A DNA stretch of 35,230 nucleotides, taken from IMG/VR virus record IMGVR_UViG_2872698443_000002; one strand, given 5' to 3'. The DNA comes from a virus. Taxonomy: Duplodnaviria; Heunggongvirae; Uroviricota; Caudoviricetes. Shown piece after piece: positions 2,058-34,533 of this stretch. The position numbers and the translations under genes were made by a program. Numbering within the stretch: position 1 is the first letter of the stretch; every line of letters begins with the position of its first letter. The notes beneath the pieces are model-generated. The model did not search any database and had not been told where the DNA came from. It was given only the letters and a program-made list of their open reading frames with translations.

Positions 2058-2708
2058 TTAGAGGTTCTTGATTACTTTGACTGCACGTCCTACGACTTCC
2101 ACATCATCTACAGAACATTCAAATGAAGTGTCATCTTGGTTAACTACTATTTTGTTTCCGGGTATGCGCGCAATTTTGACGATGTTTTTCATACCGTCGA
2201 TGTCTATGAGCCAAATTCCGTTACTAAGCTGTTTTGCTGATGTATCAACAATGTAATTGCCGTCGTTAGCTTTGACGTACAAACAATATTCGGCTTTTCC
2301 GGGTATCAAAGTCTGATCAAGGAAAACATCCCCCATCTCTTCGAGCGTTCCGTTCTCAATGGTTGCCTGCCTTACTGATGGGATAACTATCTTTGAAAGG
2401 GGGCGAACTGTAGGTGAACTCTCGTTTTTGAACTTATTTTTTTCTTCTGTTTGAGGATACATTTCCCCTTGGCCCGTTGTCAGCCAAAGAAGAGAAATAC
2501 CTGTTTCAAGGGCACATTGAATAACCCAGTCAGCAGGGAAGCTATCACGTAACATCCTGTTTGCCATGGTGCTTTTTGATGCTTCGAGGTGTTCAACCAA
2601 CGCAATCTGAGTGTTGAAACCATAGGCAGTCATCAGCCTTTTGATGGTCTCTCTTCCTCCCGTATTTGCACCTGTATTAATCTTCAAGATGAACTCTCCA
2701 TTTGACAA
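2058..2708 (-). CDS. cI: CI-type immunity repressor (186 CI-like)
   Basis: 216-aa ORF from a TTG; N-terminal HTH-like segment (AYGFNTQIALVEHLEASKSTMANRM) and a C-terminal domain ending ...FECSVDDVEVVGRAVKVIKNL. Its stop is 4 nt from the int start (cI-int operon). The start codon is uncertain: TTG at 2708 or ATG at 2633. Confidence 0.7.
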   Translation of the reverse strand: MSNGEFILKINTGANTGGRETIKRLMTAYGFNTQIALVEHLEASKSTMANRMLRDSFPADWVIQCALETGISLLWLTTGQGEMYPQTEEKNKFKNESSPTVRPLSKIVIPSVRQATIENGTLEEMGDVFLDQTLIPGKAEYCLYVKANDGNYIVDTSAKQLSNGIWLIDIDGMKNIVKIARIPGNKIVVNQDDTSFECSVDDVEVVGRAVKVIKNL

Positions 2709-2730
2709 TCCAATAACGAGATCGTATTTT
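2702..2730 (+). promoter_or_regulatory. candidate rightward early promoter (pR-like): TTGACA, 17-bp spacer, TATTTT
   Basis: Perfect -35 hexamer TTGACA at 2702..2707 and a -10-like TATTTT at 2725..2730, reading toward apl/cII. Overlaps the cI start, consistent with a face-to-face switch as in 186. Confidence 0.35.
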
Positions 2731-2810
2731 TGTATTTAACTTCTAATATGAGAGTTTAGAAGTTGGGGTTAAACATCATAAAACGAGCTTAAACCAAGAG
2801 ATACTGCACT

Positions 2811-3053
2811 ATGAGCACAGATATTTCAATTCGTGTACCAAAAGAGATGGCTACGCCTGCTGAATTCGCTGAATGGGAAGGGATTTCCCGTGGGTCTGTT
2901 TACCAAAAAATTCACCATGGCCAACTCGCTAAGTACATGGTCAAGAAAGAAAAAAACAAAGGCCGCGTAAGCCTGCGTTATCTGATGTACAAAACTGATC
3001 AGGTCCGTGAATCCCTCGGTCATTCCAACTTCCGCGTCATTGTTGGTAAGTAA
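2811..3053 (+). CDS. Apl/Cox-like excisionase and switch regulator (small HTH protein)
   Basis: 80-aa ORF, first gene transcribed divergently from cI-int. HTH-like segment EFAEWEGISRGSVYQKIHHGQL. Position and size match 186 Apl / P2 Cox. Confidence 0.6.
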   Translation: MSTDISIRVPKEMATPAEFAEWEGISRGSVYQKIHHGQLAKYMVKKEKNKGRVSLRYLMYKTDQVRESLGHSNFRVIVGK

Positions 3054-3085
3054 CTTCAATTATGGGAACTTTCTAAGGGAGCACC

Positions 3086-3595
3086 ATGTTTGATTACAAG
3101 ATTTCCAAACATCCGCATTTTGATGAAGCCTGTAGAGCTTTTGCACTACGTCACAATATGTCCAAGCTGGCAGAACGTGCAGGAATGAATGTTCAGACAC
3201 TGCGAAACAAACTCAACCCAGATCAACCACATCAGCTTACAGCGCCAGACATCTGGCTGCTTACCGATCTGACTGAGGACTCAACACTGGTAGATGGTTT
3301 TCTGGCACAGATTCATTGTCTGCCATGTGTTCCGATTAATGAGGTGGCAAAAGAGAAACTGCCGCATTACGTCATGAGTGCAACTGCAGAGATAGGACGT
3401 GTCGCGGCAGGTGCGGTTTCTGGCGATGTAAAAACCAGTGCAGGCCGTCGTGATGCGATCAGCAGCATTAACTCTGTTACACGACTGATGGCGCTGGCTG
3501 CTGTTTCATTGCAAGCCCGTTTACAGGCTAATCCTGCGATGGCGAGTGCAGTTGATACCATGACTGGTCTTGGTGCTTCATTCGGTTTGCTGTGA
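3086..3595 (+). CDS. cII: CII-like lysogeny establishment activator (186 CII-like)
   Basis: 169-aa ORF directly after the apl-like gene, preceded by RBS AAGGGAG. N-terminal HTH-like region. Same length and position as 186 CII. Confidence 0.65.
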   Translation: MFDYKISKHPHFDEACRAFALRHNMSKLAERAGMNVQTLRNKLNPDQPHQLTAPDIWLLTDLTEDSTLVDGFLAQIHCLPCVPINEVAKEKLPHYVMSATAEIGRVAAGAVSGDVKTSAGRRDAISSINSVTRLMALAAVSLQARLQANPAMASAVDTMTGLGASFGLL

Positions 3596-3602
3596 GGTGC
3601 TT

Positions 3603-3803
3603 ATGCTTACGAAAGAACCATCATTTGCATCGCTGCTGGTTAAACAAAGCCCGGCAATGCATTACGGTCACGGCTGGATCATGGGTGAGGATGGTAAACG
3701 CTGGCATCCGTGCCGTTCACAAGATGAATTGCTGGCAGAACTATCTACGAAAAAACGGGGGAACAAATGGCTATTGAAGGCGCTGCGGCGACTGTTCCAT
3801 TAA
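3603..3803 (+). CDS. hypothetical early protein
   Basis: 66-aa ORF; ATG at 3603 is 5 nt after a GAGG RBS that overlaps the cII stop. The overlapping alternative frame 3592..3777 translates to Cys/His/Trp-rich junk. Confidence 0.5.
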   Translation: MLTKEPSFASLLVKQSPAMHYGHGWIMGEDGKRWHPCRSQDELLAELSTKKRGNKWLLKALRRLFH

Positions 3804-4108
3804 GCCCCGGTGAACGCCTGAATGGACTTAATCACATTGCGGAGTTAAGGGCGAAAGTATTTGGCCTGAATATTGAGTCAGAGCTTGAGCGGTTTATTAA
3901 AGATATGCGTGATCCACGGGATATCAATAACGAACAAAATAAACGAGCACTGGCTGCCATATTCTTTATGGCAAAAATTCCAGCTGAACGTCATAGCATC
4001 AGCATTAATGAGCTGACCACTGACGAAAAGCGGGAGCTGATTAAAGCAATGAATCATTTTCGTGCAGTGGTGAGCTTATTTCCCAGACGGCTAACCATGC
4101 CGAATTAA
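3767..4108 (+). CDS. hypothetical early protein
   Basis: 113-aa ORF in the early rightward operon, overlapping the preceding gene by 37 nt. Confidence 0.5.
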   Translation: MAIEGAAATVPLSPGERLNGLNHIAELRAKVFGLNIESELERFIKDMRDPRDINNEQNKRALAAIFFMAKIPAERHSISINELTTDEKRELIKAMNHFRAVVSLFPRRLTMPN

Positions 4109-4175
4109 CCAACTAATGAAATTAATGGCGTAAACCCGCTGGGCATCCCTTTATCTAAATACAGGAGAATTGATT

Positions 4176-4409
4176 ATGCGTAATATTGAAACCCTCACGA
4201 CTAAAACCGGACCGGATGACACAGGGCTTAATATTTTACTGACAGAGGCTCGTCTGGAAGAACGCCGGGCAAGGGCTGAAGCAATGGCAGCTCGCCTTGA
4301 TCGCCTGGCGTGTCATATCACATCCCGCCAGTTAAACCACGTCGAAGCGGCAGAACTGCTGCGTGTGACTGCTGAAGCAATCCAGAACGAAGCGCAGGAG
4401 ATCCACTGA
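4176..4409 (+). CDS. hypothetical early protein
   Basis: 77-aa ORF from ATG 4176, preceded by AGGAG at 4164..4168. Confidence 0.5.
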   Translation: MRNIETLTTKTGPDDTGLNILLTEARLEERRARAEAMAARLDRLACHITSRQLNHVEAAELLRVTAEAIQNEAQEIH

Positions 4410-4636
4410 TGGCTGATGCAATGGATCTCGTACAGCAGCGAGTTGAAGAAGAACGCCAACGTCATATCCGTGCTGCCCGTGCCAAAACGCCGGGCGTGTC
4501 CCGCGTGCTTTGCGTTGAGTGTGAAGCGCCAATTCTGCCAGCACGCCGTCGTGCCATTCCGGGTGTGCAGCTTTGCATTACCTGTCAGGAAATCGCAGAG
4601 CTGAAAGGCAAACATTACAACGGAGGTGCTGTATGA
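4409..4636 (+). CDS. TraR/DksA-family C4 zinc-finger protein
   Basis: 75 aa with C-x2-C-x17-C-x2-C (CVECEAPILPARRRAIPGVQLCITCQ). Small phage proteins of this family are common in P2-like early operons. Confidence 0.8.
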   Translation: MADAMDLVQQRVEEERQRHIRAARAKTPGVSRVLCVECEAPILPARRRAIPGVQLCITCQEIAELKGKHYNGGAV

Positions 4637-5257
4637 GCACCATCCTGAAATGGGCGGGAAATAAAACCGCCATAATGTCCGAACTGAAAAAGCATCTTCC
4701 TGCTGGCCCGCGACTGGTTGAACCTTTCGCGGGATCCTGTGCAGTGATGATGGAGACGGATTACCCCAGCTATCTTGTTGCGGATATTAATCCTGATTTA
4801 ATCAACCTCTATAAAAAGGTTGCTGCTGATTGTGAGGCGTTTATATCTCGTGCCAGAGCTTTATTTGAGGAAGCAAACAGGGAGGTGGCTTATTACAACA
4901 TAAGGCAGGAGTTTAATTACTCCACTGAAATTACTGATTTCATGAAAGCGGTATATTTTCTGTATCTCAATCGTCATGGTTATCGTGGGTTATGTCGCTA
5001 TAACAAGAGCGGGTATTTCAACATTCCCTACGGTAATTATAAAAATCCGTATTTCCCTGAAAAAGAAATTCGCGCATTTGCAGAGAAAGCCCAGCGGGCA
5101 ACGTTTATCTGCGCCAGCTTTGATGAAACGCTGGCGATGTTGAAGGCGGGGGATGTGGTGTATTGCGATCCGCCTTATGACGGTACGTTTTCCGGCTATC
5201 ACACTGATGGCTTCACTGAAGATGACCAGTATCACCTGGCATCCGTTCTTGAACATC

Positions 5258-5262
5258 GATCA
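5258..5262. repeat. IS2 target-site duplication, left copy (GATCA)
   Basis: The 5-bp GATCA immediately left of the IS2 end is repeated at 6594..6598. Confidence 0.8.
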
Positions 5263-5353
5263 TAGACTGGCCCCCTGAATCTCCAGACAACCAATATCAC
5301 TTAAATAAGTGATAGTCTTAATACTAGTTTTTAGACTAGTCATTGGAGAGCAG

Positions 5354-5719
5354 ATGATTGATGTCTTAGGACCGGAGAAACGCAGACGGCGTACTACACA
5401 GGAAAAGATCGCTATTGTTCAGCAGAGTTTTGAACCGGGAATGACGGTCTCCCTTGTTGCCCGGCAACACGGTGTGGCAGCCAGCCAGTTATTTCTCTGG
5501 CGCAAGCAATACCAGGAGGGAAGTCTTACTGCTGTGGCCGCAGGAGAGCAGGTCGTTCCTGCCTCTGAACTTGCTGCTGCCATGAAGCAGATTAAAGAAC
5601 TCCAGCGCCTGCTCGGCAAAAAAACGATGGAAAATGAACTCCTTAAAGAAGCCGTTGAATACGGGCGTGCAAAAAAGTGGATAGCGCACGCGCCCTTATT
5701 GCCCGGGGATGGGGAGTAA
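5354..5719 (+). CDS. insC: IS2 transposase OrfA (InsC)
   Basis: 121 aa, [41 protein letters not shown]..., HTH-type OrfA of IS2. Confidence 0.9.
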
Positions 5720-9389: not shown

Positions 9390-9578
9390 ATGCAGGACTA
9401 TTTTTTGGAGTCTTTGAAGCTCCAGCGCATTGATTTTTTTCTTAAGCTTGTAGCGGCTAGTGAGTGTAGTGATGAAGAGAAGGGGCTGGCTCTGCAGTGG
9501 GTTTCTGAACTGACAGATGAACTCATGGCAAAAATCAGAACCCACGAATACAACCGCTCAATGGATGTCATCAGCTGA
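9390..9578 (+). CDS. tum-like SOS antirepressor, N-terminal portion (possibly one half of a split tum)
   Basis: 62-aa ORF directly downstream of the LexA box. Size and position fit the N-terminal half of a 186 Tum-like protein. Confidence 0.45.
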   Translation: MQDYFLESLKLQRIDFFLKLVAASECSDEEKGLALQWVSELTDELMAKIRTHEYNRSMDVIS

Positions 9579-9588
9579 GGTGACTTTT

Positions 9589-9822
9589 ATGCGCATTGAA
9601 ATAATGATCGATAAAGAGCAGAAGATTAGCCAGTCTACACTGGACGCCCTTGAATCCGAGCTTTACCGCAATCTGCGCCCCCTGTATCCCAAAACGGTAA
9701 TTCGTATCCGCAAAGGTAGCTCTAACGGTGTGGAACTTACCGGATTGCAACTGGACGAAGAAAGAAAACAAGTGATGAAAATTATGCAGAAGGTGTGGGA
9801 AGACGACAGCTGGCTGCATTAA
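9589..9822 (+). CDS. DinI-like protein
   Basis: 77 aa, MRIEIMIDKEQKISQSTLDALESELYRNLRPLYP...VMKIMQKVWEDDSWLH, resembling E. coli DinI (MRIEVTIAK...ETWESADDWF). RBS GAGG at 9576..9579. Its frame stays open upstream to 9517, overlapping the previous ORF. Confidence 0.8.
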   Translation: MRIEIMIDKEQKISQSTLDALESELYRNLRPLYPKTVIRIRKGSSNGVELTGLQLDEERKQVMKIMQKVWEDDSWLH

Positions 9823-10033
9823 GAAACGTTGCTGGCGTCTGAACCTGCTTCTGGCGTCAGCAAGGTTGAACCGCGAGCCTTGAGAGGCGTTAACCATAAG
9901 TAAAAAGACAGTAATCACTTGATTATCTATCAGGGCGAGACCTATGCTGCACTTTTAGTTATAACTCATAATGTATTGAAATTATTAGAATATATGTCAT
10001 TCTTAAAATGTGTATGCTTATCAAGGAGCAAGA

Positions 10034-10906
10034 ATGAAACGTGGCATTGTAGCTAATCCTAATGAAATGAGTTTTCATAGAAATAATAGTACGGTCTATC
10101 TTGGGGCAGGTTTAACTGAGCAGGATATTAATTATTTCTGCTTTTACTGGGATGATGTGGTTATTCTAGATAGTGAAAATATTCACTCGATTGTGCCTAA
10201 AGAAAAAGAATTATTAGATAATGGGGTATTACGTAGACCTATTATGAAACATGATGGTATGCTGAATATCCAAGACTTTCCATTTTTATATACGGAATTT
10301 CAGTTGCAGACATTGGATGAATTCAGGAAGAACGAGCCTGCTACTTATTGGCACTTTCATCAAACAGGGGAAAATTTAATATATGATAAAGAACAGAAAA
10401 CGGCCCTTCAGTTGAGATTGGAGTTGTTTAATGTTCTGAGAATTCCTGATAAAGATGCTCATATAGAAGATATATTACGTTTTAAAGATGATTGTCAGGA
10501 TGATCTTAATGCGTTACATGAGTACTTAGAAAAACTGTATACTGAAGTCCTTTATTCTAGAGACCCTAATCTAACGAGGGCTAAAAATTTTTCTTTATTA
10601 CAAGAGGCTGTAGTTAATCTTGATAAAGCTATCGAAGGGAAATGGAGAAATCCTATCAGAATGGGAGTCAAAGCCAATCCAGAAGTAGATGGTGGGCAGG
10701 TTATGGAATTTTTAAAACCGTTGTACCATGCTGCTATTGCTGGTTATTCAGGCGGTATTATTCCCGGTATGGTTACAGCCTTGGCAACCGCAATTCCAAG
10801 TTTTATAAAAATCCAACCAGAATGGGTGGGCTTTAGAGATAAGGGGCCTAAAGAATTAGCTTATCTTACCAAAGCAACGCATAAGGGGTTGATTAAGAGA
10901 GCTTAA
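10034..10906 (+). CDS. hypothetical protein; AT-rich cargo ORF in the A-to-cos variable region
   Basis: 290 aa from ATG 10034 (RBS AAGGAG 6 nt upstream; an upstream GTG at 10010 is also possible). Visibly AT-rich. C-terminal glycine-rich hydrophobic segment AAIAGYSGGIIPGMVTALATAIPSF. No catalytic motif recognised. Confidence 0.6.
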   Translation: MKRGIVANPNEMSFHRNNSTVYLGAGLTEQDINYFCFYWDDVVILDSENIHSIVPKEKELLDNGVLRRPIMKHDGMLNIQDFPFLYTEFQLQTLDEFRKNEPATYWHFHQTGENLIYDKEQKTALQLRLELFNVLRIPDKDAHIEDILRFKDDCQDDLNALHEYLEKLYTEVLYSRDPNLTRAKNFSLLQEAVVNLDKAIEGKWRNPIRMGVKANPEVDGGQVMEFLKPLYHAAIAGYSGGIIPGMVTALATAIPSFIKIQPEWVGFRDKGPKELAYLTKATHKGLIKRA

Positions 10907-31672: not shown

Positions 31673-32154
31673 TGATGGTGCTGGGATTGTACGTGTTTAT
31701 GCTGCGCACCGTGCCGTATCAGGAACTGCAGTATCAACGCAGCTGGCGACATGCGGCTAACAGCCGGGTAAATCGTCGTCCGTCCACGCAGTTTCTGGGA
31801 CCGGACAACGACATGCTGACGCTTTCCGGTGTTCTTATGCCGGAGATAACAGGCGGCAGGCTGTCGTTGCTGGCACTTGAGCAGATGGCAGAACAGGGGA
31901 AAGCATGGCCCCTGATTGAAGGCAGTGGCACGATTTATGGCATGTATGTGATTGAGGGACTGAATCAGACTAAAACGGAGTTTTTCCGCGACGGTATGCC
32001 GCGCCGGATTGAGTTCACCCTGTCGCTCAAACGGGTGGATGAATCCCTGTCCGATATGTTCGGTGATCTCAGTGCGCAACTGAATAATCTGCAGGACACG
32101 GCAACGTCTGCCTTAAGCGATATCAGTAAAACGGTGGGAGGGCTGCTGTCGTGA
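31669..32154 (+). CDS. U: tail protein gpU
   Basis: 161 aa, overlaps the T stop; P2 order T-U-D. Confidence 0.85.
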   Translation: MMMVLGLYVFMLRTVPYQELQYQRSWRHAANSRVNRRPSTQFLGPDNDMLTLSGVLMPEITGGRLSLLALEQMAEQGKAWPLIEGSGTIYGMYVIEGLNQTKTEFFRDGMPRRIEFTLSLKRVDESLSDMFGDLSAQLNNLQDTATSALSDISKTVGGLLS

Positions 32155-33251
32155 ATTTCAGCTCTGAACTGCTTAACAAAGGCAACAAAACTCCCGCATT
32201 CAGCATCAGTATTGAGGGCAGGGATATCACCACTGTGCTGGATAACCGCCTGATGAGTTTGACGCTGACGGATAACCGGGGCTTTGAAGCGGACCAGCTT
32301 GATCTGGAGCTGGATGACGCTGACGGAAAAATCGTGCTGCCGCGCCGTGGTGCGGTTATTACGCTGGCGCTGGGCTGGAAGGGGCAGCCGCTTTTCCCGA
32401 AAGGGGCATTCACAGTGGACGAGATTGAACACACTGGCGCACCGGACCGCCTGACTATCCGGGCGCGAAGTGCTGATTTTCGGGAAACGCTGAATACCCG
32501 CCGTGAAAAATCGTGGCATAAGACCACCGTCGGGGAAGTGGTGAAGGAAATAGCCGCGCGGCACAAGCTGAAGATGGCCCTGGGTAAAGACCTGTCGGAT
32601 AAGCCCGTGGAGCATATAGACCAGACTAATGAGAGTGACGGCAGTTTTCTGATGCGGCTGGCGCGACAGTACGGTGCCATCGCGTCGGTGAAAAATGGCA
32701 ATCTGTTATTCATCCGGCAGGGGCAGGGCAAAAGCGCCACTGGTAAACCTCTGCCAGTGATCACTATCACACGCAAGGACGGCGACAGTCACCGATTTAC
32801 CCTGGCAGATCGCGGAGCCTACACGGGCGTAATTGCCAGCTGGTTGCATACCCGCGAACCTGCGAAGAAAGAAAGCACCACGGTGAAGCGTAAGCGCAGA
32901 ACTAAGAAGCAGAAGAAAGAGCCGGAAGCGAAGCAGGGCGATTACCTGGTGGGTACGGATGAAAACGTGCTGGTACTTAATCGCACTTATGCCAACCGGA
33001 GCAACGCTGAACGGGCAGCGAAAATGCAGTGGGAACGCCTGCAACGCGGCGTTGCGTCATTCTCGCTACAACTGGCGGAAGGGCGGGCAGATCTTTACAC
33101 GGAAATGCCAGTGAAAGTTAGTGGCTTTAAACAACCGATAGATGATGCGGAATGGACCATTACGACTCTGACTCATACCGTCAGCCCGGATAATGGTTTT
33201 ACGACCAGTATTGAACTCGAAGTGAAGATTGATGATCTTGAAATGGAATAA
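32151..33251 (+). CDS. D: tail protein gpD (late control gene D)
   Basis: 366 aa, last gene of the tail operon. Confidence 0.9.
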   Translation: MNFSSELLNKGNKTPAFSISIEGRDITTVLDNRLMSLTLTDNRGFEADQLDLELDDADGKIVLPRRGAVITLALGWKGQPLFPKGAFTVDEIEHTGAPDRLTIRARSADFRETLNTRREKSWHKTTVGEVVKEIAARHKLKMALGKDLSDKPVEHIDQTNESDGSFLMRLARQYGAIASVKNGNLLFIRQGQGKSATGKPLPVITITRKDGDSHRFTLADRGAYTGVIASWLHTREPAKKESTTVKRKRRTKKQKKEPEAKQGDYLVGTDENVLVLNRTYANRSNAERAAKMQWERLQRGVASFSLQLAEGRADLYTEMPVKVSGFKQPIDDAEWTITTLTHTVSPDNGFTTSIELEVKIDDLEME

Positions 33252-33319: not shown

Positions 33320-33538
33320 ATGATGAATTGTCCAAAGTGTGGTCATGCGGCACACACAAGGAGCAGTTTTCAAGTAACTGAAAGCACCAAAGAGCGTTAC
33401 TGCCAGTGCCAAAATATTAACTGCGGGAGCACTTTTGTTACCCATGAAACAGTGGTCCGGTTTATTGTGACACCCGCACTGATTGCTACTGCTCCTCCAC
33501 ATCCATTGCCAGGTGGTCAGGGGCATATGAATTTTTGA
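33320..33538 (+). CDS. ogr: Ogr/Delta-family zinc-finger late-gene activator
   Basis: 72 aa from ATG 33320 with C-x2-C...C-x-C-x4-C (MMNCPKCGHAAH...YCQCQNINCGSTF) and C-terminal ...PHPLPGGQG, typical of P2 Ogr. Confidence 0.85.
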   Translation: MMNCPKCGHAAHTRSSFQVTESTKERYCQCQNINCGSTFVTHETVVRFIVTPALIATAPPHPLPGGQGHMNF

Positions 33539-33545
33539 GAAAGAG

Positions 33546-33569
33546 AACCTGCTACGGCAGGTTTTTATT
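33546..33569 (+). terminator. rho-independent terminator after ogr
   Basis: AACCTGC-TACG-GCAGGTT hairpin followed by TTTTATT. Confidence 0.6.
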
Positions 33570-34047
33570 CATCTGGGATCTCACCCGTTTCAAGAAAATG
33601 TATAAAGCCAGGCTCATCTATGATGATTGTGCCTTTCATCCTGGCTGCCGATACTTTTGATGGGCCTGCATTGTAACCGCAACAGAGCATCTGAAGGCTT
33701 TGGGTTACAGAGGTTCTTACCGTTAATCCTTGTTCATTCGCCTTATCAACCAATCTTTCTTTATCTGCTTTCTTAAATCCGGTGAAACACACATCGAATG
33801 TATTTTTTTTCGGACCAGACTGCTTAGTGAGATGTGAGTAGTTTTCGGGGAGGAATGACGCGCATTCCTGAATGGCTTGTTCTGGTGAATCGTACTGTTT
33901 AAGAATGCGGTCTTTTCGGAAGGTTTTTATTCGATCGGTGTTCTTACAAATGCCCTGTATATGATTTTCGCTATAACTGATGCTCTGTATTGAGTGAACT
34001 CCGATACGACCATTTGCATTGATGTAAACAAAGTGAAGTTCTTCCAT
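33565..34047 (-). CDS. hypothetical two-domain protein: N-terminal WYL-like segment plus C-terminal BRCT-like domain; AT-rich cargo gene next to the attachment site
   Basis: 160 aa with RBS AGAGG 6 nt upstream. The C-terminal ~75 aa align position-by-position with the BRCT domain of NAD-dependent DNA ligase. The N-terminus (...NGRIG...GICKNTDRIKTFRKDRI) resembles the GyC...R.FR.DRI signature of WYL beta-barrels. Confidence 0.65.
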   Translation of the reverse strand: MEELHFVYINANGRIGVHSIQSISYSENHIQGICKNTDRIKTFRKDRILKQYDSPEQAIQECASFLPENYSHLTKQSGPKKNTFDVCFTGFKKADKERLVDKANEQGLTVRTSVTQSLQMLCCGYNAGPSKVSAARMKGTIIIDEPGFIHFLETGEIPDE

Positions 34048-34127
34048 GTGAAACCTCTTTGCATGATTTCAAGAGGGCGACAGGCAAGATAGACGCAAAA
34101 GTCTGTCGCCATTTTGCCGCCACTACC

Positions 34128-34160
34128 AAAGAAAAAGGGGCTACGCTTTCACGTAACCCC
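34128..34160 (-). terminator. rho-independent terminator immediately 3' of ssrA
   Basis: On the minus strand: GGGGTTACG-TGAAAG-CGTAGCCCC followed by TTTTTCTTT, starting 10 nt after the tmRNA CCA end. Confidence 0.6.
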
Positions 34161-34170
34161 TTGTTTTATT

Positions 34171-34533
34171 TGGTGGAGCTGGCGGGAGTTGAACCCGCGT
34201 CCGAAATTCCTACATCCTCGGTACTACATGCTTAGTCAGTCTTTACATTCGCTTGCCAGCTGCGGACGGACACGCCACTAACAAACTAGCCTGATTAAGT
34301 TTTAACGCTTCAACCCCAGGCAGGGCTTCCACGCGATCTCTTTTGGGTTTGACCTCTCTTGATCCCCGTCCTAAGAGCGGAGGCTAGGGAGAGAGGGCTC
34401 TAAGCAGGTTATTAAGCTGCTAAAGCGTAGTTTTCGTCGTTTGCGACTATTTTTTGCGGCTTTTTACGAGGCCAACCGCCCCTCGGCATGCACCTTGGGT
34501 TTCGCAAATCCCGTCGAATCCAGAATCAGCCCC
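34171..34533 (-). ncRNA. ssrA: tmRNA (SsrA)
   Basis: The reverse complement begins GGGGCTGATTCTGGATTCGACGGGATTTGCGAAACCC and ends ...GGTTCAACTCCCGCCAGCTCCACCA. It contains the ANDENYALAA tag-coding region (...GCAAACGACGAAAACTACGCTTTAGCAGCTTAA) and the tRNA-like 3' end. Length is 363 nt. Confidence 0.95.

Follow-up and report, generated by a model that had tools for sequence, protein, structure and literature searches.

The 35,230-nucleotide stretch of phage DNA analyzed here (IMG/VR record IMGVR_UViG_2872698443_000002, Caudoviricetes; the window in what follows) has at its end the right-hand junction of a P2/186-like prophage inserted at ssrA. Close to that junction lies a minus-strand open reading frame (ORF; 33565..34047, ATG start in the ORF list) for a 160-amino-acid (aa) protein in which an N-terminal WYL barrel is joined to a single BRCT domain at the C-terminus by a flexible linker about 10 residues long. 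The gene is a recurrent accessory member of the leftward repressor-integrase (lysogeny) module of P2/186-like phages. Amongst the functions considered for it, that of a superinfection-exclusion factor expressed in the lysogen was ranked first, as a tentative assignment.

A conserved gene at the right end of the prophage

The genes at this end of the prophage follow the order D (+), ogr (+), WYL-BRCT (−), the transfer-messenger RNA (tmRNA) gene ssrA (−) and smpB. An initial annotation of this DNA, made from the sequence alone, had placed a 160-aa ORF between ogr and the 3' end of ssrA, on the strand opposite to the late genes, and the translation that it quoted was exact; the range it gave for the whole feature, 33565-34170, covers the coding sequence (CDS) together with the intergenic stretch reaching ssrA. 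The same annotation had called the gene AT-rich, in agreement with a guanine-cytosine (GC) content of 41.4% for the ORF versus 51.9% for the window, which is at the 6th percentile among segments of the same size.

More than 120 homologues were returned at E<=1e-3 in one search, and the family was found to comprise 2612 clusters (50% identity) at E<=1e-3 and 214 at E<=1e-30, with standalone proteins of about 160 aa making up the majority of its members. In comparisons with homologues of 56-74% identity, synonymous sites were saturated (proportion of synonymous differences, pS, 0.8-0.9), and the proportion of nonsynonymous differences (pN) was 0.18-0.29. Closer pairs of WYL-BRCT copies gave a ratio of nonsynonymous to synonymous substitution rates (dN/dS) of about 0.04-0.05. 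Because of the many homologues and this ratio, the gene is regarded as real and not as a chance ORF, and it is under strong purifying selection. In RefSeq the protein (WP_000391794.1) carries the PGAP name 'BRCT domain-containing protein'. Near-identical DNA was found in 170 of 5426 complete Escherichia coli genomes (about 3%), as well as in phages 500465-1 (Wadgaonvirus) and Cartapus (Elveevirus).

Domain architecture

Single-sequence Pfam searches were insufficient for the assignment of either domain, and family-wide scans combined with structure prediction were needed for both. The Pfam BRCT model (PF00533) scored 19.5 bits (E 1.1e-3) on the single sequence, with a gathering score of 21.3 bits, and was matched by 45 of 72 standalone full-length members of the family (best E 2e-6) and by 49 of 60 fused relatives (best E 6e-46). 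When the family profile was compared with the PDB, BRCT chains of LigA and RFC1 were matched at E of about 5e-5. An AlphaFold2 model of the 160-aa protein, a check that the initial annotation had proposed, reached a mean predicted local distance difference test (pLDDT) score of 92 and showed canonical BRCT topology, beta-alpha-beta-beta-alpha-beta-alpha, at residues 85-154.

The residues expected of a BRCT phosphate pocket are also in place, namely Thr/Ser-Gly after beta1, a basic residue in alpha1 and a Lys in alpha2. T89, G90 and K131 do not vary amongst the 72 sequences, and conservation of K96 reaches at least 90%; in alignments with RFC1 and LigA these four residues fall on the FTG and GxxK motifs. 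They probably correspond to RFC1 T415/G416/R423/K458. The C-terminal half of the protein is a single BRCT domain of the LigA/RFC1 (DNA-binding) class. The initial annotation had matched it to the LigA BRCT 'residue by residue', which was an overstatement, as identity to that domain is about 20-25% and the single-sequence score stays below the Pfam gathering score, but the homology itself is upheld by the family profiles and the structure. The RFC1 BRCT in isolation binds DNA with a dissociation constant (Kd) of about 10 nM; its preference is for 5'-phosphate ends, above all those with a 3' single-stranded DNA (ssDNA) overhang (PMC9293009).

For the N-terminal half, the Pfam WYL model (PF13280) gave no match to the single sequence at E<=10; it was matched by 5 of the 72 standalone proteins (best E 1.5e-5) and 24 of the 60 fused or longer relatives (best E 1.2e-8). 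Residues 1-74 modeled alone formed a five-strand barrel followed by two helices (pLDDT 94, predicted template modeling score 0.80). The barrel is Sm-like, and its closest structural matches were PafBC, CapW in complex with ssDNA, BrxR and DriD. A profile of this domain matched Pif1-WYL and PafBC chains over the motif region at E 0.005-0.1, the best PDB sequence-profile match being the Pif1 WYL domain (8bnv, E 0.005). In the profile alignment HIQ(28-30) falls on the eponymous W-Y-L triplet, and TFRKDR(42-47) on the NFRLDR loop between beta4 and beta5 of PafBC and a Pif1 WYL domain. H28 stands opposite the Tyr of WYF/SYL in PafB/C, and the consensus of the domain has a Y at this position.

Mutagenesis of PafBC (PMC6789036) had identified four essential positions: a Tyr/His in beta1, the Tyr of the triplet, and in the loop a Phe together with two Arg. 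Judged from the alignments, all four are conserved in the WYL-BRCT family, where Y8 is invariant and F43, R44 and R47 are at least 90% conserved across the 72 sequences. The hallmark residues for ligand binding are kept in the N-terminal half, which is a WYL/Sm-like barrel, and the initial WYL call, including the motif to which it had pointed, agrees with the family-wide scans, the structure and these residues. WYL domains bind ssDNA (PMC11662680), as described for those of DriD, PafBC, CapW and Pif1.

Altogether, the WYL domain, the linker and the BRCT domain account for all 160 aa and leave no catalytic domain in the protein.

Database names and relatives

The names given to this family in phage databases indicate enzymes. 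The cluster phrog_2561 is labeled 'DNA ligase', as are RefSeq phage records, the Cartapus record names an exonuclease, and weak NCBIfam matches to LigA and to a DEDDh exonuclease point the same way. These names have next to no chance of being correct. The match to TIGR00575 (LigA) scored 19.6 bits with a cut-off of 444 and covered only positions 549-650 of 652, and that to NF004719 (DEDDh exonuclease) scored 26.1 bits with a cut-off of 389 and covered only positions 229-307 of 331, the BRCT tail of the model. The adenylation, OB-fold, Zn-finger and HhH domains of a ligase are absent, the DEDD core of the exonuclease is not matched, and no space is left within 160 aa for an adenylation or DEDD domain. 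Both names arose because the matches were to the BRCT tails of those enzymes; they are wrong and due for replacement.

A similar partial match was obtained with PADLOC, where the C-terminal ~70 residues align with the BRCT part of the candidate defense system PDC-S48 (E 1.8e-7, 72 of 411 profile positions). Membership in PDC-S48 and in SspE was rejected, the matches being partial and made through the shared BRCT only.

Fusion partners were examined as a clue to function, and in 60 longer relatives no enzymatic domain was found. The additional parts of these proteins were further BRCT or WYL repeats, transmembrane helices, or sequence of no recognized family; amongst relatives P0177, P0196, P0211, P0213, P0228, P0172 and P0124, some have two to three N-terminal transmembrane helices and one has five BRCT repeats. 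The membrane-anchored relatives may be abortive-infection forms or forms that block DNA entry. One relative lies in an integrative island beside an Mrr nuclease and a methylase. Family members were carried by 5 of 72,556 plasmid records, some of which are mislabeled phage contigs, and with the family nearly absent from plasmids a role in conjugation or in the leading region was discarded.

The initial annotation knew of no described phage function for this architecture. A literature search on phage WYL and BRCT domains likewise turned up only a 2014 domain survey in which the WYL-BRCT fusion is listed (PMC4012209); no functional study of a WYL-BRCT protein was found, and nothing on WP_000391794 or PDC-S48.

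Placement across P2-like phages

In 80 viral contigs the WYL-BRCT gene was always convergent with ogr/D at the att-proximal end, and this placement holds for D identities between 100% and about 50%, as well as where the att site is not ssrA. In the vegetative order, seen in phages Cartapus and MLG42, the genes run cI <- int <- (variable gene) <- attP <- WYL-BRCT, with the last facing ogr. In this lineage the gene lies just beyond attP, across from int and behind a phage-borne ssrA terminator, so that integration places it at the right end of the prophage behind ssrA.

More distant homologues, of 34-45% identity, are found inside the lysogeny operon itself. In at least eight other P2-like lineages the WYL-BRCT gene (X in the gene orders given here) follows the immunity repressor, usually between repressor and integrase. 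A Xenorhabdus prophage and a metagenomic P2-like element both have cI -> X -> int with gaps of 2-35 nt, and in Pectobacterium two genes of unassigned family stand between X and int (cI -> X -> two genes -> int). Serratia has HTH repressor -> Flk_N -> X -> int, and a related P2-like contig has HTH repressor -> Flk_N -> X -> YebY -> int. In Mannheimia PHL101 an S24-type repressor is followed by X, whose ribosome-binding site (RBS) lies inside the 3' end of the repressor gene; Vibrio PV94 has 186-type CI -> X -> small gene -> int, and Burkholderia P2-like phages have XRE repressor -> uncharacterized gene -> X, convergent with D. The hosts of these lysogeny-module copies belong to the Enterobacterales, Pasteurellales, Vibrionales and Burkholderiales, and the adjoining repressors are of three unrelated types (186-CI, S24/LexA-like and short XRE).

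The variable neighbors in the repressor-integrase interval (i.e., Flk_N, YebY, proteins of 311 and 246 aa and a 123-aa protein) show that genes turn over at this locus between conserved anchors, WYL-BRCT being one of them, as expected of a hotspot. The cI-int interval of Vibrio P2-related phages has been described as an antiviral hotspot (Rousset et al. 2022, PMC9122126).

The gene is not universal in this group. P2 has no gene between ogr and attP, as the initial annotation had maintained, the roughly 100 bp there being taken up by a terminator and by Int/IHF sites; the ogr-att interval is empty in two Felsduovirus phages that also use this ssrA site, RE2010 and SEN8, both covered by the survey of related prophages suggested at that time; and 186 lacks the gene. 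The initial description of the gene as acquired cargo in an att-proximal slot was therefore right in that the gene is accessory and absent from P2, RE2010 and SEN8, but it is not simply a swapped-in gene, since elsewhere it is a recurrent member of the lysogeny module kept under purifying selection.

Expression signals

The initial annotation had credited the gene with its own RBS and upstream region. The RBS is a good one (GAGG, 6 nt before the ATG), but no promoter could be found to go with it: a promoter scan and manual inspection of the minus strand from the ssrA terminator to the ATG gave no sigma-70-like promoter, and in a comparison of 14 diverged upstream regions only the probable Int arm-type repeats and the Shine-Dalgarno sequence were conserved, with nothing promoter-like. 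The distance from ssrA to the ATG is 123 nt and contains the strong ssrA terminator. In the circular phage this terminator lies between the int-side genes and WYL-BRCT, where 186 has an annotated, predicted 'terminator of lysogenic operon'. In this lineage the gene may rely for its expression on transcripts that run past the terminator, either from cI-int or from ssrA, which is highly transcribed. Expression of WYL-BRCT in the lysogen is plausible, because of its operon position in other phages.

The probable Int arm-type repeats overlap the 5' region of the gene, and Int binding there could affect its expression. The 5' leader of the gene also contains an inverted repeat of 8 bp, GGCGACAG...CTGTCGCC, with 19 nt in the loop (34076-34083 and 34103-34110, −), which overlaps the second arm-type repeat; it is lineage-specific, not being conserved in homologues of 70-74% identity, and could be due to chance. 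The stretch 34103-34215 is common to other ssrA-integrating phages, and the phage-borne ssrA 3' end and terminator within it (34171-34215 and 34135-34162) are shared with phages of the Fels-2, RE2010 and SopE-phi type.

Possible functions

In the initial annotation a sensor, an exclusion factor or a counter-defense protein made in the lysogen had been thought plausible. Superinfection exclusion by a lysogen-expressed protein without an effector domain was ranked first because the operon position resembles that of classical exclusion genes, the gene is AT-rich and polymorphic in related phages, and the family has membrane-anchored relatives. The reported antiviral hotspot between cI and int of Vibrio P2-related phages and the relative beside an Mrr nuclease and a methylase also count in its favor. 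In the mechanism proposed, the WYL domain would bind ssDNA, as it does in DriD, PafBC, CapW and Pif1, and the BRCT domain would bind nicks or the ends of duplexes; like the isolated RFC1 BRCT, it would favor a recessed 5' phosphate beside a 3' ssDNA overhang. Together the two would clamp junctions of single- and double-stranded DNA such as gap borders and resected ends. The protein would be made alongside the repressor in the establishment or maintenance of lysogeny and, because it has no effector domain, would act by occupancy; junctions occupied on incoming or replicating foreign DNA would then be closed to sealing, RecA loading or recombination-dependent replication. The repressors next to the gene are of three unrelated types, and its function was therefore argued to be independent of repressor identity.

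Several observations weigh against this assignment. The protein has no effector domain, neither a conserved enzymatic partner gene nor, in the 60 longer relatives, an enzymatic fusion was found, and PADLOC recognizes only the generic BRCT part of a candidate system. Retention over four bacterial orders at a dN/dS of about 0.04 fits a phage housekeeping gene at least as well as an arms-race gene. A constitutive junction binder should also meet the ends of host Okazaki fragments, which creates a toxicity problem. BRCT domains are often binders of proteins or phosphopeptides, and one WYL domain has been reported to bind cyclic di-GMP rather than ssDNA. Fold matches in BFVD suggest that similar small proteins occur in non-P2 phages (e.g., Vibrio phage SSP002). 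Additionally, a strong terminator precedes the gene in this lineage, whether the phage is integrated or circular, and no promoter is recognizable.

Amongst the alternatives, an accessory role in the phage's own life cycle is considered rather unlikely. At the establishment of lysogeny the protein could mark nicks and gaps in the phage DNA and help LigA or repair to make the closed, supercoilable circle required by Int, or it could protect replication or recombination intermediates. The tight cI-int placement, with apparent translational coupling in Xenorhabdus and the metagenomic element, speaks for such a role, as do retention in P2-like phages of four bacterial orders under strong purifying selection and the BRCT itself, which is most similar to that of LigA, by which the host seals the cos nicks of phages. 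However, P2, 186 and Fels-2-type phages manage without the gene, and a protein encoded on incoming DNA cannot act before it is transcribed. P2-type cohesive ends are 5' overhangs. They are thus unlike the recessed 5'-phosphate/3'-overhang geometry preferred by RFC1-class BRCTs (PMC9293009), and the capping of cos ends was set aside on this comparison.

The protein might instead serve counter-defense, by masking the ssDNA or DNA-end signals read by CapW/BrxR-type WYL regulators, which de-repress CBASS or BREX when they sense ssDNA, or by RecBCD- or RecFOR-dependent systems, or by shielding phage ends from nucleases. Host WYL defense regulators sense ssDNA (PMC11662680), for which a phage WYL could compete; the lack of an effector domain is typical of inhibitors and sponges, the gene is AT-rich and accessory, and the BFVD matches include possible homologues in non-temperate phages. 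Anti-defense genes are, however, usually early lytic genes and not members of a repressor operon, and stoichiometric sequestration of ssDNA that is covered by abundant SSB appears improbable; this explanation was judged unlikely. Sensing of DNA damage, through ssDNA, to tune the lysis-lysogeny switch or the SOS response was given still less credence. The protein might occupy gaps at their 5' junction, the place of RecA loading by RecFOR, and in this way raise or lower LexA/Tum-dependent induction, or it might act directly on the repressor or Int. WYL domains do serve as ssDNA sensors in SOS-independent damage responses (DriD, PafBC), the gene stands beside the repressor in eight lineages, and a DinI-like gene in the same prophage makes RecA modulation a recurring theme. 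On the other hand, the protein has no HTH or WCX output domain, 186 switches normally without it, and neighboring repressors from three unrelated families disfavor a specific repressor partner, which also weakened the case for a repressor-specific antirepressor.

Superinfection exclusion is also contained in a wider proposal, which we regard as possible but doubtful, that WYL-BRCT is a minimal phage WYL sensor without an effector. Such a protein would read a DNA structure, ssDNA beside a 5'-phosphorylated duplex end, with the BRCT domain as its output. Placed in the repressor-integrase operon, it would exclude competitors by capping gaps and resected ends, or couple damage or infection signals to the lysogeny decision, and the membrane-anchored relatives would be abortive-infection or injection-blocking versions of it.

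Relation to known systems and significance

CapW, BrxR, DriD and PafBC share the WYL module with the phage protein. Unlike these wHTH-WYL-WCX regulators, it has neither a winged HTH nor a WCX domain: the barrel begins at residue 3 and is followed by two short helices and the BRCT, and no HTH family of Pfam was matched in the 160 aa. It is therefore unable to act as a transcription factor of the CapW/BrxR/DriD/PafBC type and is not a member of that family. The BRCT is of the same class as those of LigA and RFC1 (p140), but here its partner is a WYL domain, and it does not form part of a ligase or clamp loader. Closer in design is Pif1 of Thermotoga elfii and relatives, in which the WYL is an accessory ssDNA-binding module on a DNA-metabolism domain, again with no HTH (bioRxiv 10.1101/163188); the partner there is an enzymatic SF1 helicase, whereas in the phage protein it is the non-catalytic BRCT. 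With PDC-S48 only the C-terminal BRCT is held in common, and the rest of the 411-position profile has no counterpart.

As to position, WYL-BRCT resembles the exclusion genes of immunity operons and the genes of P2 hotspots in lying in or beside the repressor-integrase unit, in its presence/absence polymorphism and in its AT-richness. Examples of exclusion genes are lambda rexAB and P2 tin/old/fun. WYL-BRCT has no sequence or fold relation to these or to the genes of the K139-like Vibrio cI-int hotspot; it is also much more widely conserved than typical hotspot cargo.

WYL domains have recently been recognized as ssDNA sensors that switch on bacterial damage responses and defense systems. To our knowledge, every characterized example comes from a host protein in which the WYL is joined to an HTH or an enzyme. 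The case described here is a phage WYL whose sole other part is a ligase-type BRCT, set in the lysogeny operon of a large P2-like group. The fusion, from the 2014 survey, and the BRCT name, from PGAP, were known already; new are the putative output domain, a BRCT, and the lysogeny-module setting for a presumed nucleic-acid sensor of the WYL kind. If the proposed sensor function were correct, it would give the WYL-BRCT architecture its first functional role and would define a new class of single-protein, non-enzymatic prophage factor. If the predicted gap and end binding holds, the protein would provide a small, tractable model (160 aa, a confident structure model and clear point mutants) of how a prophage senses or blocks DNA intermediates, and its locus would be a third accessory locus beside the two known P2 hotspots.

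Other features of the prophage

The coordinates of the features discussed are collected in Table 1.

Table 1. Features of the window at and around the WYL-BRCT gene, with the evidence for each
Feature	Position	Strand	Evidence
CDS of the 160-aa WYL-BRCT protein, stop codon included	33565..34047	−	ORF list; RefSeq WP_000391794.1; phrog_2561 E 2e-77; dN/dS about 0.04-0.05
WYL domain (Sm-like five-strand barrel), aa 3-52, then two short helices (aa 55-73)	33892..34041	−	
Single BRCT domain, aa 85-154, LigA/RFC1 class	33586..33795	−	
Shine-Dalgarno GAGG, 6 nt before ATG	34054..34057	−	Sequence; AAGGTG/GAGG at the same place in diverged homologues
Direct repeat TGGCGGCA-AAA-TGGCGACA, probable Int arm-type sites of attP/attR	34104..34122	−	In all related loci whatever the att site; reverse complement of 186 consensus YAYCGCCAYTY
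Rho-independent ssrA terminator, phage-borne copy, 12-bp stem + T run	34135..34162	−	Terminator scan
ssrA (tmRNA) gene, directly upstream of WYL-BRCT in the prophage, same orientation	34171..34533	−	ARAGORN
Hairpin directly after both the ogr and WYL-BRCT stops, probably a bidirectional terminator, T-run better on + strand	33546..33563	.	Terminator scan; P2 and 186 annotate ogr/B terminator there
ogr, late-gene activator, convergent neighbor of WYL-BRCT	33320..33538	+	PGAP annotation of identical prophage; tblastn synteny in 80 loci
Tail gene D	32151-33251	+	Right-end gene order
Lysogeny operon (int 1035-2054, 186-type cI 2058-2708); precedes WYL-BRCT, same orientation, in the circular genome	1035..2708	−	Pfam; gene order in Cartapus, MLG42

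At the ssrA site itself, E. coli contig L041 carries a second integrative element in tandem (2639-5706), with an Arm-DNA-bind_2 integrase and a DUF4325 STAS-like gene, between an ssrA remnant and the WYL-BRCT gene. At the other end of the window, positions 1-1032 (−) hold a complete 343-aa ORF of 31-35% GC between int and attL, with no Pfam or PADLOC match. The corresponding place is taken by Orf69 in 186 and by a RES-domain protein of 401 aa in phage Cartapus, and it is a second variable cargo slot, facing WYL-BRCT across attP in the circular genome.

Further into the prophage, a DUF6236 protein (10010-10906, +) occupies the cos-proximal P2 hotspot, at the position of tin/old; in the otherwise near-identical prophage of NZ_OZ547033 it is replaced by a HEPN-domain protein and a P-loop NTPase. 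The DinI-like protein is encoded at 9517-9822 (+), downstream of the replication gene. We take this position to be that of the SOS-controlled Tum/Orf97 region of phage 186, and by this analogy it would suggest an induction circuit of the LexA/Tum type.

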